Origin: Candidatus Saccharimonadota bacterium
GTDB lineage: Bacteria > Patescibacteriota > Saccharimonadia > Saccharimonadales > UBA4665
Direction: 5' to 3'
DNA: 32,000 nt
Assembly: GCA_003516025.1 (NCBI GenBank)
Contig: CP023991.1
Span: 300,001-332,000 of the forward strand
The notes below the pieces were generated by a model that worked only from the letters and a program-made list of their open reading frames with translations, was not told where the DNA came from and did no database searches. Positions 2,969 to 23,660 of the stretch are shown here, one piece after another. The position numbers and the translations under genes were made by a program. The first letter of the stretch is position 1, and every line of letters begins with the position of its first letter.

Positions 2969-4696
2969 ATGGCAGCACGACTTCCTACTCCCGGCGGTGA
3001 TGATAATGCCTGGGGTGTTATCCTCAACGATTTTTTGGGTCAGGCACATAATTCCGACGGCTCGCTAAAGCAGCTATCGCAGTCCCAAGTTGATGGCCTT
3101 GTTGTAACATTGGACCACAAGGTCAATAGTGATGACTTAGCAGACGTTGCAACCAGCGGATCCTATGTAGACTTAATCAATCGGCCAAGTATTCCTACTG
3201 AAGCGCACGAAGTGGGGGCTGTAGCCTCGGATCAATTAGACGATGACATTACAGTATTGGTAAATGATACAGATTCAGCTACGAGCGGTGCTTTACATAC
3301 GGCTTTTGTAACCAAAGATGTTGTGACGTCATTAAGCCAAAATATGCAGGCAACGGCCGCACAAAGCGCGGCATCAGCCCACCAGCCGGTCGGTTTGCCG
3401 AATTCAGTGACGATTAGTAATACTACTACGGTGTCACCGTTAATTAGTGCTAACTTTGCGGCCGAAGATCTCGCAGTAGGCGACGTTATACAAATTTATT
3501 GCACCGGAACTTTTTTAAATACCAGTGGAACGGCCGTAACTCTGGCTCCAAATGTTTCGTATGGGTCGTCTGTTCAGGGAGGTCCTGGTAGTTTCGCTGC
3601 GTCACCATTACCGTATGTATGGTCCACTGAAGTCAGGTTGGTAGTGAACGCGGTTGACGCCCAGGACATGTACTGCCTCTTTTCGGTGGAAACTCCTACA
3701 GGGCCGGAACGCTGGGTTACGCAGTTTAGCGCTACTCAATCTTTATCCGTCAACTCATCGCTGACATTTGCCATCAAGCTTGGTACGGCAAGTACGTCGG
3801 CCGTATTTACTATGACAAGCGGATGGATTAACCGATTGCCACCATCATCTCAGCAGGTATCGCCACCGTTATGGTTTGCGGATTACGACCTGGTGGGCAC
3901 GAATGGTACGGGCACGGTACAGGGTGTATGGTATCGAGAACAGGAACCTAACAGCGTAAATGCCAGTATAAACCGCATTTCCATAGTACCGGCAGTCCAG
4001 GTGCCAGGTGCCGGCGCTTATAAGCCGCTGGGCAATGCGATGCGGGTCGAGCTCCATCCTTATTCTACTTCGAACCCGGGAACCAGTGAACCGGCCGATG
4101 GTGATGTACAGGGAGGTTCGTATAACCGGGCTGAGTGCTATGACCGTTATCCAACAGGTACAGCCAGTAGTACGCCGCCTGCCGACTGGCCAGATCCAGT
4201 TGGATCAGAACGTTGGTACGGCTTCAGTGTTTTCTTTCCTGACGATCACATTTTTGCAACAGACTCGACTTGGTTTACCTTGACGCAGTGGAAAGGGTAT
4301 CATGGCGGGTCTCCGCCCCTAGCAATAGAACTAAACCGGCAAACACTGCGTTTTGGTGGTACGAGAGGGCCCAGCCTGCCGGGTTACAATCTGATGACCG
4401 TAACGGCCGGCAAGTGGTACAAAATAGTCGTTGGAATTAAATGGTCTACCCAACCGGCTGTCGGCTGGGTAAACGTGATTGTTAACGACCAGGAGCTCAT
4501 CCCGCGCTTCTACACCGACACTATGGATACATACGGCGGCACAGGAGACCTGAATGCTGATCCAATATACCTTAAACAGGGTATCTATCGATCTAAAGAT
4601 TGGTCGGTGACGCATGTGCTGCACTTTGGTAATATGGTTGTCGGGCGCCATCGTGGAGATGTCGAAAGCAAATTAAACAGCGTGCTAGGAGCGTAA
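2969..4696 (+). CDS. Phage tail-fibre-like protein with a C-terminal polysaccharide-lyase-type (PF14099-like, concanavalin fold) domain
   Basis: 575 aa. The N-terminus PTPGGDDNAWGVILNDFL and the SGSYVDLINRPSIPT motif resemble tail-fibre or minor-tail proteins. The C-terminus WFTLTQWKGYHGGSPPLAIEL...GKWYKIVVGIKWS...GWVNVIVNDQEL...IYLKQGIYRS fits the polysaccharide-lyase jelly-roll pattern. No signal peptide. Confidence 0.6.
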   Translation: MAARLPTPGGDDNAWGVILNDFLGQAHNSDGSLKQLSQSQVDGLVVTLDHKVNSDDLADVATSGSYVDLINRPSIPTEAHEVGAVASDQLDDDITVLVNDTDSATSGALHTAFVTKDVVTSLSQNMQATAAQSAASAHQPVGLPNSVTISNTTTVSPLISANFAAEDLAVGDVIQIYCTGTFLNTSGTAVTLAPNVSYGSSVQGGPGSFAASPLPYVWSTEVRLVVNAVDAQDMYCLFSVETPTGPERWVTQFSATQSLSVNSSLTFAIKLGTASTSAVFTMTSGWINRLPPSSQQVSPPLWFADYDLVGTNGTGTVQGVWYREQEPNSVNASINRISIVPAVQVPGAGAYKPLGNAMRVELHPYSTSNPGTSEPADGDVQGGSYNRAECYDRYPTGTASSTPPADWPDPVGSERWYGFSVFFPDDHIFATDSTWFTLTQWKGYHGGSPPLAIELNRQTLRFGGTRGPSLPGYNLMTVTAGKWYKIVVGIKWSTQPAVGWVNVIVNDQELIPRFYTDTMDTYGGTGDLNADPIYLKQGIYRSKDWSVTHVLHFGNMVVGRHRGDVESKLNSVLGA

Positions 4697-7374: not shown

Positions 7375-7450
7375 GGCTCTTTAGCTCAGTTGGTAGAGCA
7401 GAGGCCTGAAGAGCCTTGTGTCCCCAGTTCGAGTCTGGGAGGAGCCACCA
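7375..7450 (+). tRNA. tRNA-Phe (GAA), CCA encoded
   Basis: Hand-folded cloverleaf: GGCTCTT/AGGAGCC acceptor, GCTC-AGTTGGTA-GAGC D arm, GAGGC-CTGAAGA-GCCTT anticodon arm, CCCAG-TTCGAGT-CTGGG T arm. 76 nt. Confidence 0.95.
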
Positions 7451-8017: not shown

Positions 8018-8094
8018 GCGGGTCTAGCTCAGTTGTTTAGAGCGCGTCCTTGCCAAGGACGAGGCCAGGGGTTAGAGTCCCCTGACCCGCACCA
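8018..8094 (+). tRNA. tRNA-Gly (GCC), CCA encoded, non-canonical D/T loops
   Basis: GCGGGTC/GACCCGC acceptor, GCTC-AGTTGTTTA-GAGC D arm, CGTCC-TTGCCAA-GGACG anticodon arm, AGGGG-TTAGAGT-CCCCT T arm. 77 nt. Confidence 0.9.
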
Positions 8095-15039: not shown

Positions 15040-15591
15040 ATGATAAAACCAAAACTTAAAATTCTTCTATCAGTCTACTTGTTTAGCCAAATCGGCTTCT
15101 ACATTTTCGCGCCACTCTACGCCTTGTTTGCTCAGGGCCTGGATATGGAGCCGAAGGACATCGCCCTGCTTTGGAGTTATTACTCATTGACCATGGCGGT
15201 GTTCATATTGATCTTTGGTAAGCTTGAAAACAAACGAAAAAAAGAAAAGTTTCTGGCATTCGGCATGCTGCTGTTCCCAATCGCCGATCTCCTGTTTTTG
15301 GGAGTCCATACGCAGCTGGCGTTAGCGGGAGTATTGACGATAAACGCGCTGGGCGGCGGCATAACCATTCCGGCGATAAAGACACTATTCGCGAAAAACG
15401 AAAACCGGGGAAGGGAAAGTGAAGAGTGGTCTTGGATGGACAGTGGTAATATGTTTTCGTCTGCGATCGGCGCGGGCATCGGTGGGCTTATTCTGAGCCT
15501 GGATGGTTTCCGCGGCTTATTTTTGACCATGGCTGCCGTACAGTTTCTAGCCTTTGTGCTGGCGCTAAAATCCATAACGGTCAGGCGCTAA
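15040..15591 (+). CDS. Half-size MFS-like membrane protein (about 6 TM)
   Basis: 183 aa. It resembles one six-helix half of an MFS transporter (FAPLYALF..., GKLENKRKKEKFLAFG, GGGITIPAIKTLF). TATAAT at 15024-15029 lies only 10 nt from the ATG. Confidence 0.5.
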   Translation: MIKPKLKILLSVYLFSQIGFYIFAPLYALFAQGLDMEPKDIALLWSYYSLTMAVFILIFGKLENKRKKEKFLAFGMLLFPIADLLFLGVHTQLALAGVLTINALGGGITIPAIKTLFAKNENRGRESEEWSWMDSGNMFSSAIGAGIGGLILSLDGFRGLFLTMAAVQFLAFVLALKSITVRR

Positions 15592-17096: not shown

Positions 17097-17579
17097 ATGA
17101 AACGTGGATCAACATTTATTCTCAGAGGCGCAGTTATTGCCATTGGAGCTGTAGTGCTCGCTCTTTGTGTATTCGCCTTACCGGCAATATGGGCGGCGGT
17201 TGCTGAAGAATATCCACACTATACCTATGTGTTTTACGTTATCCTGAGTGCTTTCTATGTTGCTGCGGTGCCGTTCTATGTCGCGCTCTACCAAGCCATG
17301 AAACTTCTCTCGTATATTGATAACGGCAAAGCCTTCACATTGTTTGCGGTAAAGGCACTTAAGCGAATAGCTTATAGCGCGCTGTCTATTAGCGCGGTAT
17401 TTGTGGCGAGTTTGCCATTTTTCTACATCTGGGCCGATAATGACGACGCGCCTGGTCTGGTCATTGTAGGCATGTTCCTTGTCGTAGCGCCGTTCACCAT
17501 CGCGGTATTCGCGGCGCTGTTGCAGCGGCTGTTCCGCGAGGCAATCGAAATTAAAGACGAAAACGATTTAACGGTCTAG
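17097..17579 (+). CDS. DUF2975 family membrane protein
   Basis: 160 aa, 4 TM. It has the usual genomic pairing with a downstream YozG-like HTH gene. Confidence 0.65.
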   Translation: MKRGSTFILRGAVIAIGAVVLALCVFALPAIWAAVAEEYPHYTYVFYVILSAFYVAAVPFYVALYQAMKLLSYIDNGKAFTLFAVKALKRIAYSALSISAVFVASLPFFYIWADNDDAPGLVIVGMFLVVAPFTIAVFAALLQRLFREAIEIKDENDLTV

Positions 17580-17588
17580 GTTACCACT

Positions 17589-17810
17589 ATGGCAATAGTA
17601 ATAAATATCGATGTCATGCTGGCTAAGCGCAAAATGAGCGTTACGGAACTGACCGAGAAGGTGGGCATTACTATGGCCAACTTGTCTATCCTTAAGAACG
17701 GACGGGCTAAAGCGGTGCGTTTATCGACGCTGGAAGCAATTTGTAAAGCGCTCGATTGTCAGCCAGGTGACATTTTGGAATACCAGCCTGATAAGGCTCA
17801 TAAACGGTAA
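17589..17810 (+). CDS. XRE/Cro-type HTH transcriptional regulator (YozG-like)
   Basis: 73 aa. MLAKRKMSVTELTEKVGITMANLSILKNGRAKAVRLSTLEAICKALDCQPGDILEY. Confidence 0.85.
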   Translation: MAIVINIDVMLAKRKMSVTELTEKVGITMANLSILKNGRAKAVRLSTLEAICKALDCQPGDILEYQPDKAHKR

Positions 17811-17861
17811 AAAACACTACATATAGCGTAGTGCGCTTATGTTATAGTACTAATACTTAAC

Positions 17862-17960
17862 AAGCAAAAGCTGGAAGCAGGTGAGATTCCTGCACTGTGC
17901 CGCAACGGTAATGGTCTATGTAGAATATATAGCCTAAGTCCGATACAGCTACTAAACAAG
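17862..17960 (+). promoter_or_regulatory. Cobalamin riboswitch-like aptamer (boundaries approximate)
   Basis: GGAAGCAGGTGAGATTCCTGCAC (17873-17895), GCCGCAACGGTAA (17899-17911), B12-box-like AGTCCGATACAGCT (17937-17950) with CAGCT pairing to AGCTG (17869-17873). An extended -10, TGtTATAGT, lies at 17840-17848. Confidence 0.7.
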
Positions 17961-18040
17961 CCTTCCGAGCAGAAGCACGCGGCCCTATGTGGCGGCCCAT
18001 TGTCTGCTCGCTCGGTAGACAAAGACAGAGGGAACCAACC

Positions 18041-19495
18041 ATGGCCGTCGCAGCCGAAATGCATACTTATGAACCTGATTACCGGCTGGTTGATGCTATT
18101 CCGGAAGCGTATCAGCAGCGGCAGGCAGTGCGCGTGCAGGCCGAAGCGGTACTAGAGGAACGCCGCGACCGAATGACGGCTGGCGAAGTAATGGTGTCGG
18201 TCGATGTCTTGTCGACTGCTCACCGGGTGCTTGCTGCCGGAAGATGGTACGGCCAGGGAAGTCCGCAACAAATCGAGCTATTTGAAGGTTTGAAACTAGA
18301 TAGCCACCGCGCTTTAGCCGAATGGTACCGTAAAAACACCGCGGAATATTTCCCGCCTGAACGTCATACTTTCGACGACGCGACGCGGGATTTTTATTCT
18401 AATGGATTGTCGACCGGCCGGATGACCGAAAACGGCATCGTGCCAATTCCGGACAGTCCCGAAGATGAAGCCCGCCGCGTTAACGAGCATGTCGAAGAAC
18501 GTACGCCGCAGATACTCCGCAGCCTGGGCTGCGTTGCTATTGGTACCGACAAAATCAGGACAGTTTCCGAATGTACCGATAAGGCGATTGTCGATTATAA
18601 CGATGATGTGGCTGCCAAACGGCCAGCACGGAGTTCGGGCGGACAAGTGCCGAAAATCGCCAAGCTGATGATACGGGACATGGGCTTTGACGCCGATAGC
18701 AGCGACCGGTTCCAGGAGCAGGTCGCCATTAGCGGGTTGCTGGTAACGCATGAGATTATCCAAAAGACCCTGGAACGCGCCGGATTAGCCGTAGCTCATA
18801 TGGATAAAACTGAACTGCACGCCGCCCAAATACTGGCCCGCGATGACCTGATGGATTTTATACGCCGCCTCGATACTGTTGCTAGCGAGGAATGGTGTAC
18901 CAGCGTATTCATGGGCGAGCAAGTCTCGCAGGACCACCCCAAGAATTATGAGACGTTCCGCCAGGAGGCGCTGCGCCGGCAGGAGGGTTTGTGGGACATA
19001 GCTGAAACTGTCGCCCAGTTTGTGCTCGATCTGGCCCGCGACAATGTAGACAGGCGCGCTGCTCCGGCTATGGTAGAAAAGTTCATCAAATTGCAATTAC
19101 TGGAGCTGGGCAAGGAAAGTACCGAAATTGCCGAACATATGTTCGACCGAGAAACAGCCCAAGGGCTGCAGGAAGTCGCGCGCCTGGAGTCAATCGGCAA
19201 GCAGGAGCTGGCCTTTGAACTGATGCGGCTGGTAACCGAAGCCGCGCCGAACGATGGCTACTGCGGGGCGGGCAGCTGCGGCCTTGAAGCGGTTAACGTA
19301 TATAGCGAATCGGGTCAGGCCCTGGCAAAAAAAGTTGGTGCCGCGCCTGGTGATATCGTGGTGCGTGATACCGAACGCCGCTGCCGCTGCGGCAAAAAGG
19401 CCATTGTTTACTCCTATACTACAACGCGGGTTAATAAGTACTGCACGGCATGCACGGCGTTCGAGTCCAAGGTATCGGTGGCGGCTACTGCTTAA
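18041..19495 (+). CDS. Hypothetical cytoplasmic protein with a C-terminal Cys cluster (function unknown)
   Basis: ATG at 18041 with GAGGGA SD 7 nt upstream. The track start at 17987 lies inside the leader. 484 aa with no TM or signal peptide. The C-terminus has Cx4C...CxC...CxxC (GYCGAGSCG, RCRCGKK, KYCTACT). Confidence 0.6.
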   Translation: MAVAAEMHTYEPDYRLVDAIPEAYQQRQAVRVQAEAVLEERRDRMTAGEVMVSVDVLSTAHRVLAAGRWYGQGSPQQIELFEGLKLDSHRALAEWYRKNTAEYFPPERHTFDDATRDFYSNGLSTGRMTENGIVPIPDSPEDEARRVNEHVEERTPQILRSLGCVAIGTDKIRTVSECTDKAIVDYNDDVAAKRPARSSGGQVPKIAKLMIRDMGFDADSSDRFQEQVAISGLLVTHEIIQKTLERAGLAVAHMDKTELHAAQILARDDLMDFIRRLDTVASEEWCTSVFMGEQVSQDHPKNYETFRQEALRRQEGLWDIAETVAQFVLDLARDNVDRRAAPAMVEKFIKLQLLELGKESTEIAEHMFDRETAQGLQEVARLESIGKQELAFELMRLVTEAAPNDGYCGAGSCGLEAVNVYSESGQALAKKVGAAPGDIVVRDTERRCRCGKKAIVYSYTTTRVNKYCTACTAFESKVSVAATA

Positions 19496-19523
19496 ATTAC
19501 TACATTTATGTTAGTGTAAATGC

Positions 19524-20486
19524 ATGTCTACCAGTGATAAAACGGTACTTTCGGTAGTTATTCCGGTACATAACGAAGCGGACAATATACAGCCGCTCTA
19601 TATGGTGCTTGATCCCGTTCTCAAACACGTGTCAAAAAATGCCTATGAAATCATTTTTGTTGACGATGGCAGCCACGACAGTACTGCGCGCGTAATCGCT
19701 GATCTGCACGGCATGAACGGGCGCGTCAAGCTGCTGAGTTTGTCTAAGAACTTCGGCAAGGAAATCGCCCTGGCAGCCGGCATAGCCGCGGCTTCGGGAG
19801 AGGCGATTATCCTAATGGATGGCGATGGACAGCATCCCGTAGACCGCATTCCTGATTTGGTATCAGCCTGGAAGCAGGGCTGGCAAGTGGTAGTTGGTGT
19901 ACGGACACATAACAGGAACGAAGGCCTGGTTAAGAAATATGGTTCTAAATTGTTTTACGCTCTGTTCAACCGCCTGTCTGGACAGCGGATGGTACCTGGT
20001 TCCAGTGATTTCCGGCTTATTGACCGCGCGGTACAGCAGGAGTTTATAAAACTGAACGAGCCGCAATCGATTACGCGCGGCCTGATCGATTGGCTTGGTT
20101 TTAAACGCGCCTATGTCACGTATGCTGCCCATCCGCGGATGCATGGCCCGGCGTCCTACACTTTTCGTAACCTCAGTAAATTAGCTGCCCACAGTTTCGT
20201 ATCGTTGTCGCCCGCGCCGCTCTACGCTTTCGGCTATCTCGGGCTGGCCATTACCGGAGTATCATTCGTCCTTGGCCTGGCGGTACTGATAGAGCAAATA
20301 ATACTTAATGATCCGCTCAGCTGGGACTTTACCGGTACCGCTATGCTTAGCATACTCGTGCTATTCCTGGTTGGGTTAACTCTTGTGTCGCAAGGTGTAC
20401 TGGCGCTCTATATTTCGTACATCCACACCCAAAGCAAAGGCCGGCCGCTGTATGTTGTTAACCACCGCGAATCGCGCGGCCTGTAG
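19524..20486 (+). CDS. GT2 polyprenol-phosphate glycosyltransferase (ArnC/GtrB/DPM1-like)
   Basis: 320 aa. LSVVIPVHNEADNI, VDDGSHDST, NFGKEIALAAGIAAASGEAIILMDGDGQHP, and two C-terminal TM helices. Confidence 0.85.
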   Translation: MSTSDKTVLSVVIPVHNEADNIQPLYMVLDPVLKHVSKNAYEIIFVDDGSHDSTARVIADLHGMNGRVKLLSLSKNFGKEIALAAGIAAASGEAIILMDGDGQHPVDRIPDLVSAWKQGWQVVVGVRTHNRNEGLVKKYGSKLFYALFNRLSGQRMVPGSSDFRLIDRAVQQEFIKLNEPQSITRGLIDWLGFKRAYVTYAAHPRMHGPASYTFRNLSKLAAHSFVSLSPAPLYAFGYLGLAITGVSFVLGLAVLIEQIILNDPLSWDFTGTAMLSILVLFLVGLTLVSQGVLALYISYIHTQSKGRPLYVVNHRESRGL

Positions 20487-20574: not shown

Positions 20575-23220
20575 ATGCCGCGCACCAAACTAACCGATCA
20601 AGCTACATCAACCACAGCCAAAAAGGCCCGGAAATCGTCTGGACGGTCTTCGTCGCAGTCTCAGGCCGAAGTTGTAGCTAAGGAAGCCCCTGCCGGTTGG
20701 CGGCAACGGATTAGTGGCCTGCTGCGGTCTGGCCGCTTTCAAAAAATCTTTGCCTGGACGAGTTTCGGTGTACTGATGCTTACCTCGGTATTCTGGGCGG
20801 TGCTGGGAGCCCGGCTGCATGAAAATAATGCCGACCAGTTTATCGACGCCTACTTGTTTGACGACGCAAGTACCTTTACGAACGCGCTTTTTCCAGGCGC
20901 GCATACTTTTCTGATTAAGTGGCCGGTATTTTTGCTGATGCAATTATACGGGTATCACACCTTTGTGTTTATGGCGGCTACTGTCCTTATGGTATTGCCA
21001 ACGGTTGCCCTGTTGGCTTACCTGATCCGAAAAATCGATCCCCGGCCGGTCGTGTTTGGTGTGGTATGTCTCGCCCTGTCCCTGGTCTTGCTGCTGGTAC
21101 CGGCTCAACCATATCCAGGAGCGCTGTTACCAGCTAACTTTGCGATGACAACTACCCGTAACCTGGAGTATGCCTTGTTTGTCTGGTGTCTGTACAGGTT
21201 CGTGTCTGCCCGTCCACATATTCGCCAGTGGACATTCTGGCTTCTCGCCGGCCTGATGGCCTTGGTTATTGCCAGTGATAAGCTGTTCGCCGTTCTCTTA
21301 CTGGGCGGCGCGGCGGCTGCTCTGGTTGGTTATGCCGGCGTGTTGCGCCGCCGATACGAACTGCGGACTATTCTGCGGTTAGGCGTGCTGGGGATAATGG
21401 CCTTCGCGCTAGCGAACGTGCTGCTGCTGGTACTGTCGCGTACCGGACTGACGAACATCGTTAATGAGGGCAGTACCTCGCCCTATCCGCTCGTACATTC
21501 CGCAGGCCAACTCGCTCAAGGGTTGCTCTACGCTGCTGGCGCTCTGCTCACTAATATGGGTGCCAATCCAATCCATGACAACCTGGTCGTTCGTGACATT
21601 CCGGCCGCGCTGCTGCAAAGCATAATGAGACCGAGTTTTATCGCCTACTTCGCTAACTTTTTAGTGGCTGTAGCGGGTCTGTACGCTATTGTCCGCGTAA
21701 TCCTCAGCCGCACCTCGGATGCCCCCACTCGCCTAACGGTACTGCTCTGCGGCTCCACACTGGCAGCTTTAGCCGTTTTTGCGTTAACCGACCATTATTA
21801 TCCGGTTGACGCCCGCTATGTCGCCATTGAATTGTTCGCTGTATTTATCGCACTGGCCACCTACACGCGCGGCCGTCAGCTGCGGGGCAGGGCAATTATG
21901 GCGTTGTCCGGGCTGCTTGTGCTGCTCCTGCCAATTGGTATGGCTCAGGCATGGCATGAATATCAGCTAGGTAGTAACGCGACGGCCGCTGATACGAGCC
22001 GGACAGTAACAATTGCCAAAATTTTAGACCGCAATCATATTTCACGGCTACTCGGAGATTACTGGAAAATCACGCCGGTAAAATCACGCACGGCGACTAA
22101 CATCACTGTGGCGCCGGTTGATGACTGCCAGACGCCGCACCCGGTGCTTAACAGCAAAGCCTGGTTTACTATGCCCAAATCGACGCCTTCCGCGCTGTTA
22201 CTGCAGCGTGACGGTACCGATGAAGCTACGTTTAACGGCTGTAGTCTGGCTCGCATTGCCACCTTGTACGGCGCACCGACCGACCGGGTTGTTTTAGATA
22301 GTAATCCGCAGCCACCTTATTTGGCCCAAACGATGCTCTTATTGTACGGGAATGGGACTGAGCCGCTGTCTGAGCAGAAGGCTGCCGATACGCCCAAACC
22401 TCTGGCGGCTCCTGTGGTCGCGGCGCTCCGCGAAACCGGTAACTGTACCGAAACCTCCCTGAACGTTGTCGCCCATCAGGACGATGACCTCTTATTTATG
22501 AATCCCGATATCCTGGGTGATATCGCGGCAGGCCGCTGTATCCGGACAGTCTACGTAACCGCTGGTGATGCCGGCGCGGGCCGTGCCTACTGGCAAAGCC
22601 GCGACATGGGCGCGCGGGCGGCGTATGCCGATATGTACAATGTGCCGAGCGTGTGGCACGAAGAACGGCAGCAATTGAACGGCCGCTTCGTGACTGTCGC
22701 GACGCTCGAAGGCAGGCCTAACGTATCATTGGTGTTCCTGCATTTGCCGGACGGAAACCCCGAAGGTAGCGGTTTCGCGGTGAGTAACCACGAAAACCTG
22801 GCAGCCCTAACCAGTGGCGCCATACACGAGATGCATAACGTAGAAGATGGCAGCAGCTACACCAAAGACCAACTGGTAAGTGATCTAAAGACGATTATGG
22901 ATGTAGATGCCCCAACCGTTATTCGCAGCCAGGGATCTGATAACGCGTTCGACGGCGACCATAGCGATCACCATGCTGTCGGCCAGCTAACGGAGCTGGC
23001 GCGCCAGGAGTACAATAACGGGCCGCAAGTTGTGCGCTACATTGGCTATCCCAATAAGGTCTGGCCAGTTAACCTTACGGACGATCAGGTGACCCTAAAG
23101 GAACGGGCATTCTTGGCCTACGCCAAATTTGACGGCGCTGTCTGCCAGTCGGCCTTTGACTGTCAGCAGACGTATACCTACGGCAATTATTTGATCCGCC
23201 AGTATTCAAGCCAGCCATAA
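20575..23220 (+). CDS. Polytopic membrane protein (GT-C/PMT_2-like N-terminal half, inferred) fused to a PIG-L/LmbE-family deacetylase domain
   Basis: 881 aa. About 12 hydrophobic helices lie between residues about 55 and 460, with an acidic first loop (ENNADQFIDAYLFDD). The C-terminal domain has VVAHQDDDLLFMNPD...VYVTAGDAG and DGDHSDHHAVG, which are PIG-L zinc-site motifs. Confidence 0.7.
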   Translation: MPRTKLTDQATSTTAKKARKSSGRSSSQSQAEVVAKEAPAGWRQRISGLLRSGRFQKIFAWTSFGVLMLTSVFWAVLGARLHENNADQFIDAYLFDDASTFTNALFPGAHTFLIKWPVFLLMQLYGYHTFVFMAATVLMVLPTVALLAYLIRKIDPRPVVFGVVCLALSLVLLLVPAQPYPGALLPANFAMTTTRNLEYALFVWCLYRFVSARPHIRQWTFWLLAGLMALVIASDKLFAVLLLGGAAAALVGYAGVLRRRYELRTILRLGVLGIMAFALANVLLLVLSRTGLTNIVNEGSTSPYPLVHSAGQLAQGLLYAAGALLTNMGANPIHDNLVVRDIPAALLQSIMRPSFIAYFANFLVAVAGLYAIVRVILSRTSDAPTRLTVLLCGSTLAALAVFALTDHYYPVDARYVAIELFAVFIALATYTRGRQLRGRAIMALSGLLVLLLPIGMAQAWHEYQLGSNATAADTSRTVTIAKILDRNHISRLLGDYWKITPVKSRTATNITVAPVDDCQTPHPVLNSKAWFTMPKSTPSALLLQRDGTDEATFNGCSLARIATLYGAPTDRVVLDSNPQPPYLAQTMLLLYGNGTEPLSEQKAADTPKPLAAPVVAALRETGNCTETSLNVVAHQDDDLLFMNPDILGDIAAGRCIRTVYVTAGDAGAGRAYWQSRDMGARAAYADMYNVPSVWHEERQQLNGRFVTVATLEGRPNVSLVFLHLPDGNPEGSGFAVSNHENLAALTSGAIHEMHNVEDGSSYTKDQLVSDLKTIMDVDAPTVIRSQGSDNAFDGDHSDHHAVGQLTELARQEYNNGPQVVRYIGYPNKVWPVNLTDDQVTLKERAFLAYAKFDGAVCQSAFDCQQTYTYGNYLIRQYSSQP

Positions 23221-23489: not shown

Positions 23490-23563
23490 GGCGCCTTGGC
23501 GGAGCAGTTACGCAGCGGTCTGCAAAACCGCGTAGACGGGTGCAACTCCCGTAGGTGCCTCCA
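23490..23563 (+). tRNA. tRNA-Cys (GCA), CCA encoded, discriminator U
   Basis: GGCGCCT/AGGTGCC acceptor (one G-T pair), GCGGT-CTGCAAA-ACCGC anticodon arm, ACGGG-TGCAACT-CCCGT T arm. 74 nt. Confidence 0.85.
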
Positions 23564-23572
23564 AACAATTTA

Positions 23573-23660
23573 GGGCGAGTGGCGGAATTGGTATACGCGG
23601 CGGACTTAAAATCCGCTGGCCTTAACAGCCTTGAGGGTTCGAGTCCCTCCTCGCCCACCA
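23573..23660 (+). tRNA. tRNA-Leu (UAA), long variable arm, CCA encoded
   Basis: GGGCGAG/CTCGCCC acceptor, GCGGA-CTTAAAA-TCCGC anticodon arm, 16-nt variable arm, GAGGG-TTCGAGT-CCCTC T arm. 88 nt. Confidence 0.95.

Follow-up and report, generated by a model that had tools for sequence, protein, structure and literature searches.

What kind of protein is placed under the control of a cobalamin (vitamin B12) riboswitch when it resembles no gene known to be regulated by B12? This question is raised by a stretch of 32,000 nt from a Candidatus Saccharimonadota bacterium (contig CP023991.1, positions 300,001 to 332,000), called the window below; coordinates are positions in the window, on the plus strand unless stated otherwise. 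A preliminary description of this DNA had noted strings reminiscent of the cobalamin aptamer in front of an open reading frame (ORF) of 484 aa (18041-19495), referred to here as c0. Every one of these strings is found in the window as described. GGAAGCAGGTGAGATTCCTGCAC (17873-17895) includes a GCAGG/CCTGC hairpin and is followed by GCCGCAACGGTAA (17899-17911) and by the B12-box-like AGTCCGATACAGCT (17937-17950), whose CAGCT (17946-17950) is complementary to AGCTG (17869-17873). Further downstream, CGAGCAGA (17966-17973) is complementary to TCTGCTCG (18003-18010), GAGGGA lies at 18028-18033 and the ATG at 18041, and there is no T-run before the start codon. In the interpretation developed here, 17857-18043 would be the leader of a functional cobalamin riboswitch of a subtype specific to Saccharimonadales, and high B12 would switch off the gene at 18041-19495.

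Does the leader contain a cobalamin aptamer? When both strands of the whole window were searched with the 4227 families of Rfam 15, the only matches were four tRNAs and the Cobalamin family RF00174, found at 17828-17967 on the plus strand with 35.6 bits (gathering threshold 31.5 bits; E = 1.1e-5). The aptamer core, as delimited by this match, by covariation and by a family covariance model (R1), lies at 17869-17950. It consists of P3 (17869-17873 paired with 17946-17950), P4 (17877-17881 with 17889-17893, loop TGAGATT), P5 and its loop L5 (within 17894-17905) and P6 (17906-17908 with 17940-17942), together with a short P6-extension hairpin at 17913-17934 and the B12 box at 17937-17950. The core columns of RF00174 align well, and the B12-box and junction nucleotides of the core are all intact in the window copy. 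P1 and P2 of the model are not formed, most of their columns being non-canonical. Downstream of the core is a P13-like hairpin, CTTC-CGAGCA-GAAG (17962-17975), recognised by its conserved loop and covarying stem.

Is this structure retained in related genomes? A scan of one genome per GTDB species with the window protein yielded 22 loci (L001-L022) with 34-54% identity, nearly all of them from metagenome-assembled genomes (MAGs) of Saccharimonadales; one is labelled only Patescibacteria and one 'Candidatus Pristimantibacillus'. The sequence of L014 begins inside the gene, leaving no leader, and 21 of the 22 loci have upstream sequence; together with the window copy these make up an alignment of 22 leaders. 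Direct reading found the core motif and a common layout in all 21. A promoter-like block, UUAACAA, GCUGGAA, the P4 hairpin, ACUGUGCCGCAACGGU and a variable insert of 3-104 nt are followed by AAGUCCGAUACAGC, the hairpin with the CGAGCA loop, a final hairpin and the start codon. AGTCCGATACAGC and GCCGCAAC, which align to the RF00174 consensus, are invariant or nearly so across the 22 leaders. Matches to the cobalamin clan lie directly upstream of the orthologues, at or above gathering in L004, L005, L008, L015, L016 and L022, and slightly under it in L019, L020 and L021. In all, riboswitch and ORF are linked in 22 of the 22 cases with upstream sequence.

Covariation was counted after P3, P4, P6 and the CGAGCA hairpin (17 pairs) had been written onto the 22-leader alignment, with 500 shuffles for comparison. 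Standard pairs occupy 94.4% of cells, against 77.8% in the shuffles, none of which reaches the observed value. Cells changed on both sides number 62, compared with 17.4 in the shuffles, and both-side change is seen in 11 of the 17 pairs, as opposed to 8.0 in the shuffles and 3 in each of the slid controls; in these controls, where the 3' partners were moved by 1-3 columns, only 26-45% of cells were paired. The stem of the CGAGCA hairpin (helix 4) is changed on both sides in three of its four pairs, with 97.7% of cells paired, and its loop is kept in 21 of the 22 leaders. The covariance model R1, built from the orthologous leader set, matches 146 loci with scores of 61-111 bits. Among the first 100 sources 99 have a single match, and every one of the further 47 has one or more; the only negative source was the L014 sequence, which starts inside the gene. 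R1 finds a single match in the window, at 17858-17977 (104.6 bits), and the CGAGCA hairpin is present in every R1 match, including those in the leaders of DUF4430 uptake operons. The riboswitch call of the preliminary description is thus borne out by a score above the RF00174 gathering threshold, by conserved and covarying structure in P3, P4, P6 and the downstream hairpin of orthologous leaders, and by the conserved linkage to the ORF. It is virtually certain that the riboswitch is real.

To which of the known cobalamin riboswitches does it belong? With RF00174 (clan CL00101) the window leader shares, in addition to the score above gathering, the GGAA...GGUG-loop-CC, GCCGCAAC and B12-box strings, covarying P3, P4 and P6, a position 5' of a gene on the same strand, and an OFF-type platform. 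It differs from RF00174 in having no P1 and P2, the stretch in question being more likely promoter DNA; in a P6 extension that is a single 22-nt hairpin and not a large peripheral domain; and in a P13 loop (CGAGCA) and a 5' UUAACAA that are specific to the lineage. The window aptamer, with a P6 insert of 27 nt, is structurally of the compact type. It is nearly as compact as the adenosylcobalamin (AdoCbl)-II/variant family RF01689, although RF00174 gives it the best score. In the leaders of L001-L022 the P6 insert is located between GCAACGGU and AAGUCCG, and measures 3 nt in L004, L005, L015 and L022, and 86-104 nt in L001, L003 and L020. Leaders with the insert match RF00174 and those without it match RF01689; leaders that lack the P6 extension (L004, L005, L015, L022, L143 and L145) score above or near the gathering threshold of the latter. 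There are also P4-loop inserts in L007 and L012. The orthologous leader set (P6 insert 3-104 nt) therefore straddles RF00174 and RF01689, and selectivity for AdoCbl versus methylcobalamin or hydroxocobalamin cannot be read from such sequences.

What lies upstream of the aptamer core? The conserved block there was considered as P1/P2 of the aptamer, an assignment that was dropped because its TA-n3-T pattern of variation fits a -10 box better. Leader comparison points to an extended -10 promoter box, TGTTATAGT (17841-17849). Almost every orthologous leader has a TA-n3-T box at this position, usually preceded by TG, with middle bases that differ between leaders (TACACT, TAAACT, TATGCT and others). 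Transcription is predicted to start a few nucleotides 5' of TTAACAA (17857-17863), a leader motif that hardly varies: across the 22 aligned leaders, change is absent or rare in most of its columns, and L001 and L020 depart from it by one base each. UUAACAA is retained even where insertions of 25-40 nt separate it from the -10 box (L007, L017 and L019). No complementary stretch was found as a pairing partner for this motif.

The -35 position of the leader promoter is occupied by an imperfect palindrome, CACTACATATAGCGTAGTG (17815-17833), with an A-run on its 5' side. Inspection by eye, without counting, found a TACTAYATnTAGCGTA-like palindrome at the same place in most of the 19 leaders that were printed with 60 nt of upstream sequence. 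The palindrome is kept at the -35 position whichever gene adjoins upstream (window and L001-L022), and in the window scan it is marked on either strand as a hairpin. It may serve as the operator of a regulator, or else as a terminator, whether for the upstream gene or in both directions.

How would cobalamin control the expression of c0? The expression platform, placed at 17988-18043 by folding, contains a local hairpin (18000-18022), the Shine-Dalgarno (SD) sequence GAGGGA (18028-18033) and the start codon (18041-18043), with no U-run. Folds offer two alternative pairings to TCTGCTCG, either with CGAGCAGA or within the local hairpin; in the minimum-free-energy structure of the entire leader, 17988-17997 is paired with the first codons. 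At the same position, orthologous leaders have CCCTCTGC...GCAGAGGG and a T-run. When each of the 22 leaders was folded from the CGAGCA hairpin to the start codon, the SD (GAGGG) was found in the 3' arm of a strong last hairpin in 19 of them, and in 16 this hairpin is followed by at least four U immediately before the AUG. The U-run directly 3' of the hairpin is the reason to read it, in these 16 leaders, as an intrinsic terminator as well as an SD sequestor. The last hairpin has a 5' arm (CCCUCUGCUCG and variants) that shows complementarity to the CGAGCA loop and its 3' arm in roughly half of the leaders, that of the window among them. For L003, L006, L011, L016 and L017 the duplex energies come to -13 to -17 kcal/mol, and for the window pairing of CGAGCAGA with UCUGCUCG to -13.8 kcal/mol. 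The window copy itself reads GAGGGAACCAACCAUG, having lost the U-run, and control there is therefore best read as translational. Translational control in place of termination had been proposed from the window alone; the proposal holds for the window copy but not as a general rule, given the U-run in 16 of the 22 orthologous leaders.

The following sequence of events would account for these alternatives. With cobalamin bound, the four-way-junction aptamer (P3, P4, P5 and P6) would keep the CTTC-CGAGCA-GAAG hairpin shut, probably via a kissing loop between L5 and L13; this hairpin is the presumed partner of L5 or, alternatively, half of an anti-sequestor helix. As long as the hairpin is shut, TCTGCTCG would be free for local folding, and the ribosome-binding region would be buried. 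In the absence of cobalamin, CGAGCAGA would pair with TCTGCTCG, releasing the SD and the AUG. In most orthologues the hairpin that buries the SD would double as an intrinsic terminator, which the 3' half of the CGAGCA hairpin would open when there is no ligand. It is very likely that the riboswitch works as an OFF switch, and moderately likely that control of the window copy is translational only.

What is the protein behind this switch? An in-frame ATG at 17987 would yield 502 aa; however, homologues of c0 all begin with a MAVAAE-type N-terminus, and the start is therefore placed at 18041. The cytoplasmic location stated in the preliminary description agrees with the lack of a signal peptide or transmembrane (TM) segment in c0, its highest 19-residue Kyte-Doolittle mean being 0.97. 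The Cys-rich C-terminus is likewise present, with C408-x4-C413, C448-x-C450 and C468-xx-C471; alignments and AlphaFold place the codons of this module at 19262-19453. A confident AlphaFold2 model based on a 34-sequence alignment (pLDDT 86.5, pTM 0.84) shows N-terminal helices followed by a central alpha/beta domain, a five-helix bundle, the loop with C408 and C413, and a small beta ribbon. Cys408 and Cys413 are situated in a Gly-rich loop of low confidence (CGAGSCG; pLDDT <50 at residues 406-411). Beyond this loop, C448, C450, C468 and C471 make up a Cys4 ribbon, with beta strands predicted at 439-478. All six Cys are invariant in alignment A1; of these, the broader alignment A3 keeps C408 and C468 without exception and C413, C448, C450 and C471 almost without exception. 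Matches to zinc-ribbon families of Pfam are weak, sub-threshold and seen in single members only.

The preliminary description could liken c0 to no known B12-regulated gene, and this was upheld by Pfam, NCBIfam, PHROGs and PDB searches, by a hidden Markov model (HMM) scan of 1.84 billion cluster representatives, and by two AlphaFold and Foldseek runs. No family of Pfam-A or NCBIfam is matched by c0, a 24-residue match (E = 0.0055) is all that PHROGs returned, and sequence and profile searches of the PDB found no match. The HMM scan recovered 182 proteins, all of them full-length or fragmentary members of the c0 family. No match was found by tblastn of c0 against phage and plasmid collections, nor is any defence or phage family matched. 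Foldseek searches of the c0 model against the PDB and viral predicted structures (BFVD) returned nothing with E <0.03; the weak top matches are alpha/beta sandwiches of the IclR-effector, TagF, longin and UTRA types. Neither in sequence nor in fold does c0 resemble a known B12-binding domain, such as the B12-binding Rossmann domain, or a B12-independent isozyme, such as MetE, ribonucleotide reductase (RNR) or QueH.

How far does the family extend? A word-indexed search found 183 homologues, and the 120 that were listed measure 476-533 aa (one truncated, 443 aa) and are 48-64% identical to c0. Wherever a source name is given it is 'hypothetical protein', and the organism names are nearly all Candidatus Saccharimonadales or Saccharibacteria. 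A subfamily of short forms comprises more than 387 members, mostly of ~370-410 aa and a few of up to 491 aa; the organism names given are Saccharimonadales, Saccharibacteria or Microsaccharimonas. Most of these proteins are unnamed, and the rest are all called 'hypothetical protein'. When profiles are compared directly, the window family fails to match either short-form group, and the homology between them is supported only by way of an intermediate group. In profile-profile comparisons this group matches the window family at 98.3% (E = 1.5e-14) and the short forms at 90.5% (E = 1.4e-6), while the two short-form groups match each other at 99.9%. The resulting superfamily, with c0 as its founding member here, has several hundred members and is hyper-divergent; so far, all of them are in Saccharimonadales/Saccharibacteria, save one MAG labelled only Patescibacteria.

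The features that survive across the superfamily are an N-terminal AxAE, the glutamate E94, a G-[YF] before a beta hairpin, the C-terminal Cys ribbon and one Cys in a Gly-rich loop (CGAGSCG, GCGG or CPGG). C408 and C471 are nearly invariant in the superfamily alignment A4, E94 is invariant and R146 nearly so, and K208 is found in the closer subfamilies only. An ATP-grasp or ligase-type enzyme, considered on account of K208, was dropped because this Lys is not conserved in the distant subfamilies. Some members have Lys-rich tails after the ribbon. The distant members match no family of Pfam, NCBIfam or PHROGs. The AlphaFold model of one short form, P0270, is again confident (pLDDT 85.9) and has no Foldseek match in the PDB either, the best E-value being 0.18. 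Over the two models, the weak top matches are ligand-binding alpha/beta sandwiches such as IclR, LasR and TagF.

Is c0 the only target of this riboswitch subtype? JGI metagenome contigs were scanned for the core pattern TGCCGCAACGGT-N(1-31)-AGTCCGATACAG, which gave at least 120 loci; 101 of the 120 listed have a callable downstream ORF. Among the matches listed, the downstream gene belongs to the BLAST-linked cluster containing c0 at 80 of these 101 loci, and a two-gene operon encoding a membrane-anchored DUF4430 protein and a DUF6580 membrane protein follows at 14. Other genes follow at the remaining seven, four of which have an acidic third family. The regulon thus includes recognised B12 genes, the same riboswitch subtype being found before DUF4430 (+DUF6580) operons at a minimum of 14 metagenome loci and in L143. 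Transcobalamins have DUF4430 as their C-terminal domain (PMC4350170), and the DUF4430/DUF6580 operon is therefore a plausible corrinoid uptake system. In L043, L070 and L100 this operon fills the slot of c0, after a LexA-like gene, c9 and the riboswitch.

The two outputs stand side by side in L143 (JGI Ga0494143_0000001, a 1.05-Mb contig), which has two riboswitches in tandem, at 1057-1134 and 3857-3927 in its own numbering. The first unit consists of a riboswitch (RF01689, 44.4 bits), a DUF4430 gene, a prenyltransferase/SQHop-like gene and a DUF6580 gene; the genes of this unit together look like a split transcobalamin-like binder and a membrane protein. In the second unit, a riboswitch (35.9 bits; R1, 89.9 bits) is followed by a short form of c0 and a NadD-like gene. 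As c0 and the uptake operon occur in tandem and are co-regulated, c0 is a second member of the regulon and no replacement for uptake. The transcobalamin-like uptake cassettes (DUF4430 and DUF6580, with or without a prenyltransferase-like alpha domain) have the same riboswitch subtype, P13 hairpin and genomic slot as c0. By contrast, c0 is soluble, has neither a TM segment nor a signal peptide and shares no domain with them; it joins the regulon as a further member and is no transporter.

A third family is found behind the same riboswitch subtype in L102, L117, L126 and L132. Its members are 440-600 aa long, very acidic and of low complexity, with an N-terminal block LVAxNAxVxVRC and a C-terminal block ITEAEAQE...GTHEIIKKLL. 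The members from L117 and L132 have no Pfam match.

Which genes accompany c0 in its relatives? The usual order is an O-antigen-ligase-like gene, GtrA, a gene with a LexA N-terminal domain, c9 or UppP, the riboswitch, c0, a NadD-like nucleotidyltransferase gene and a Kef-like gene on the minus strand. The LexA-like gene encodes a protein of ~150-160 aa with the LexA N-terminal DNA-binding domain alone (no peptidase domain was detected). In 17 of the 22 genome loci only one gene, or none, separates it from the riboswitch downstream, and it was also noted in L143 and L145. The NadD-like gene is also present 3' of very divergent c0 genes. It is not beside c0 in the window, L009, L010, L021 and L145, and where another gene parts it from c0 (L004, L008) it stays with a small Cys-rich ORF of its own. 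That c0 works with the NadD-like gene was considered and dropped, since the latter travels with the small ORF and is absent beside c0 in five loci. As the NadD-like gene is separable from it, c0 is treated as the riboswitch's own target.

The small Cys-rich ORF, directly upstream of the NadD-like gene, encodes 57-69 aa with the motif FCDxC..YPIEPVHGHFxCPxC...TKCCEGMP and has no significant Pfam match; it falls below the 80-aa cut-off used for ORF calling. In the numbering of the respective loci, it is located at 6478-6651 in L001, 6422-6598 in L011, 1689-1874 in L017, ~8324-8470 in L004 and ~5976-6122 in L008, and it was seen in 10 more loci.

What could c0 do for the cell? The aptamer is a cobalamin aptamer with covarying helices, its linkage to c0 is conserved, and c0 is co-regulated with uptake genes. 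Since c0 is co-regulated with, and sometimes adjoins, a transcobalamin-like uptake operon, it would be induced by B12 starvation, and it is therefore part of a B12-starvation regulon. The best explanation of the whole combines a B12 OFF riboswitch with a B12-starvation-induced c0 whose role, as a leading guess, concerns corrinoids inside the cell; taken together, this comes close to being probable but stops short of it. For the role itself, intracellular corrinoid capture or processing is put forward tentatively, as the leading guess. It is favoured because c0 is soluble, is co-regulated with and adjacent to uptake genes, and has a ligand-binding-like central domain and an invariant Cys in a flexible loop. 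The central alpha/beta domain would do the binding, and the Cys on the Gly-rich loop would be a reactive or cobalt-ligating residue, beside a structural Zn ribbon. An essential Cys or Cys-rich metal site that acts on or ligates cobalamin is known from BtuM, CblC/CblD and the EutT-type adenosyltransferase. The comparison is a functional analogy and serves as a lead; c0 has no sequence or fold similarity to any PDB entry.

Several observations weigh against this explanation. At the level of the RNA, the window copy exceeds the Rfam gathering threshold by only 4 bits and leaves P1 and P2 of the model unformed, and the minimum free energy of the leader is unremarkable (z = -1.16). Anti-terminator complementarity is weak in L004, L012, L015 and L020. 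L5 (UGCCG) and L13 (CGAGCA) allow at most ~3 kissing pairs, and as both are invariant save for one loop base in L002, covariation lends the kissing loop no support. At the level of the protein, the likeness of the Foldseek matches to ligand-binding domains is not significant (E >= 0.18), there is no canonical B12-binding motif or domain in c0, and nothing physically links it to corrinoids. The identity of c0 proteins, 10-50% as compared with ~27-53% for a neighbour gene, reveals far faster divergence, which is unusual for a cofactor-handling enzyme. The marginal score, the unformed P1/P2 and the U-run lost from the window copy might even suggest a leader in decay, or a chance resemblance, that responds to no ligand. 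This is extremely improbable, given the conservation and covariation over 22 genomes and at least 120 metagenome loci and the intact core B12-box and junction nucleotides of the window copy.

Could c0 act without handling corrinoids at all? Where a cytoplasmic enzyme is controlled by a B12 OFF switch in organisms that cannot make B12, the classic explanation is a B12-independent substitute. By the logic of metE or nrdAB/nrdDG, c0 would then bypass a B12-dependent process and be made only when B12 is too scarce for it. Its solubility, its conserved charged residues (E94, R146 and, in closer subfamilies, K208) and its metal-binding-like Cys cluster are consistent with this, as is its position as the dominant target of the riboswitch subtype, at 80 of the 101 loci among the matches listed. 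However, neither AlphaFold model is like the MetE barrel, the ten-stranded barrel of RNR or QueH, Pfam and NCBIfam find nothing, and identity falling to 10-15% within one bacterial class is atypical for a core metabolic enzyme, all of which makes a bypass unlikely. The divergence, combined with the retention of the N-terminal AxAE and the C-terminal ribbon, would fit proteins that have no direct role in B12 chemistry. Saccharibacteria are episymbionts, and B12 might be a cue (e.g., for contact with a B12-producing host) to make fast-evolving starvation, regulatory or host-interaction proteins; the Lys-rich tails after the ribbon in some members, and the unrelated acidic low-complexity family behind the same riboswitch in L102, L117, L126 and L132, are in line with this. 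In a bolder version, B12 would be a host-contact cue that switches on hypervariable proteins in episymbionts. Yet c0 has no signal peptide or TM segment and matches no defence family, phage or plasmid, and its tandem arrangement and co-regulation with the B12 uptake operon point more simply to B12 economy, so that a role of B12 as a mere cue is improbable.

Does the riboswitch of the window also reach the genes beyond c0? A GT2 glycosyltransferase gene (19524-20486) begins 28 nt past the c0 stop, and the preliminary description had suggested that envelope-glycan genes may be co-regulated. The short gap is as described, but the case for co-regulation is weak, as the downstream gene differs between genomes and the spacer has a second promoter-like motif. 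This spacer, ATTACTACATTTATGTTAGTGTAAATGC (19496-19523), repeats parts of the riboswitch promoter region (ACTACAT ... TTATGTTAnnGT); it may be GT2's own promoter or the trace of a cassette insertion. By read-through, the riboswitch would gate both GT2 and the gene for a PIG-L-domain protein (20575-23220), as parts of a longer B12-controlled operon. The 28-nt distance, the common strand and the lack of a terminator-like site 3' of the c0 stop in the window scan would allow this. Nevertheless, such an operon is somewhat unlikely: the arrangement is not conserved, with the NadD-like gene, the small Cys-rich ORF or convergent genes following c0 elsewhere, the spacer motif resembles the promoter upstream of the riboswitch, and translational control would leave read-through transcription ungated. 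The variable gene 3' of c0 and the promoter-like spacer imply that any co-regulation would be specific to the window genome.

The neighbours in the window are not B12-related; they include DUF2975 and HTH_26 genes upstream and, downstream, GT2, the PIG-L-domain protein, tRNAs and MetRS. The gene for the DUF2975 membrane protein (17097-17579) is followed after 10 nt by that for a 73-aa Cro/C1-type regulator of the HTH_26 family (17589-17810), immediately 5' of the riboswitch; the orthologous loci lack this pair. The sole Pfam match of the 881-aa protein encoded at 20575-23220 is PIG-L (GlcNAc-PI de-N-acetylase) at residues 629-807, and its first ~600 residues are without a match. Four tRNA genes lie on the plus strand (7375-7447, 8018-8091, 23490-23560 and 23573-23657), the last two 12 nt apart. 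A 183-aa ORF (15040-15591) matches the first half only of the MFS_1 profile (1-170 of 347) and may, on this basis, be a truncated or split transporter gene.

What does the locus tell us about B12 in these bacteria? Saccharibacteria and other members of the Candidate Phyla Radiation (CPR) have tiny genomes and rely on hosts for cofactors. In the library that was searched, no paper was found that links Saccharibacteria or Patescibacteria to cobalamin riboswitches, or to B12 with RNR. The RNA described here belongs to a known riboswitch class, of which it is a variant particular to this lineage, and no family, fold or literature match was found for its main target family. The riboswitch has two main outputs: a transcobalamin-like uptake operon and, far more often, the orphan c0 superfamily. 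The P6 extensions, which range from 3 nt to 104 nt, form a natural series for studying how peripheral domains tune the selectivity of cobalamin riboswitches. As for the superfamily itself, our tentative suggestion is that it may be a new kind of B12-economy protein with an unseen fold, perhaps a cytoplasmic corrinoid trap, a chaperone or a processing enzyme that uses the loop Cys, and the main B12-sensing output in Saccharibacteria. Through the riboswitch, several hundred CPR proteins annotated as 'hypothetical' gain a rare and solid functional anchor, namely that they are made when B12 is scarce.

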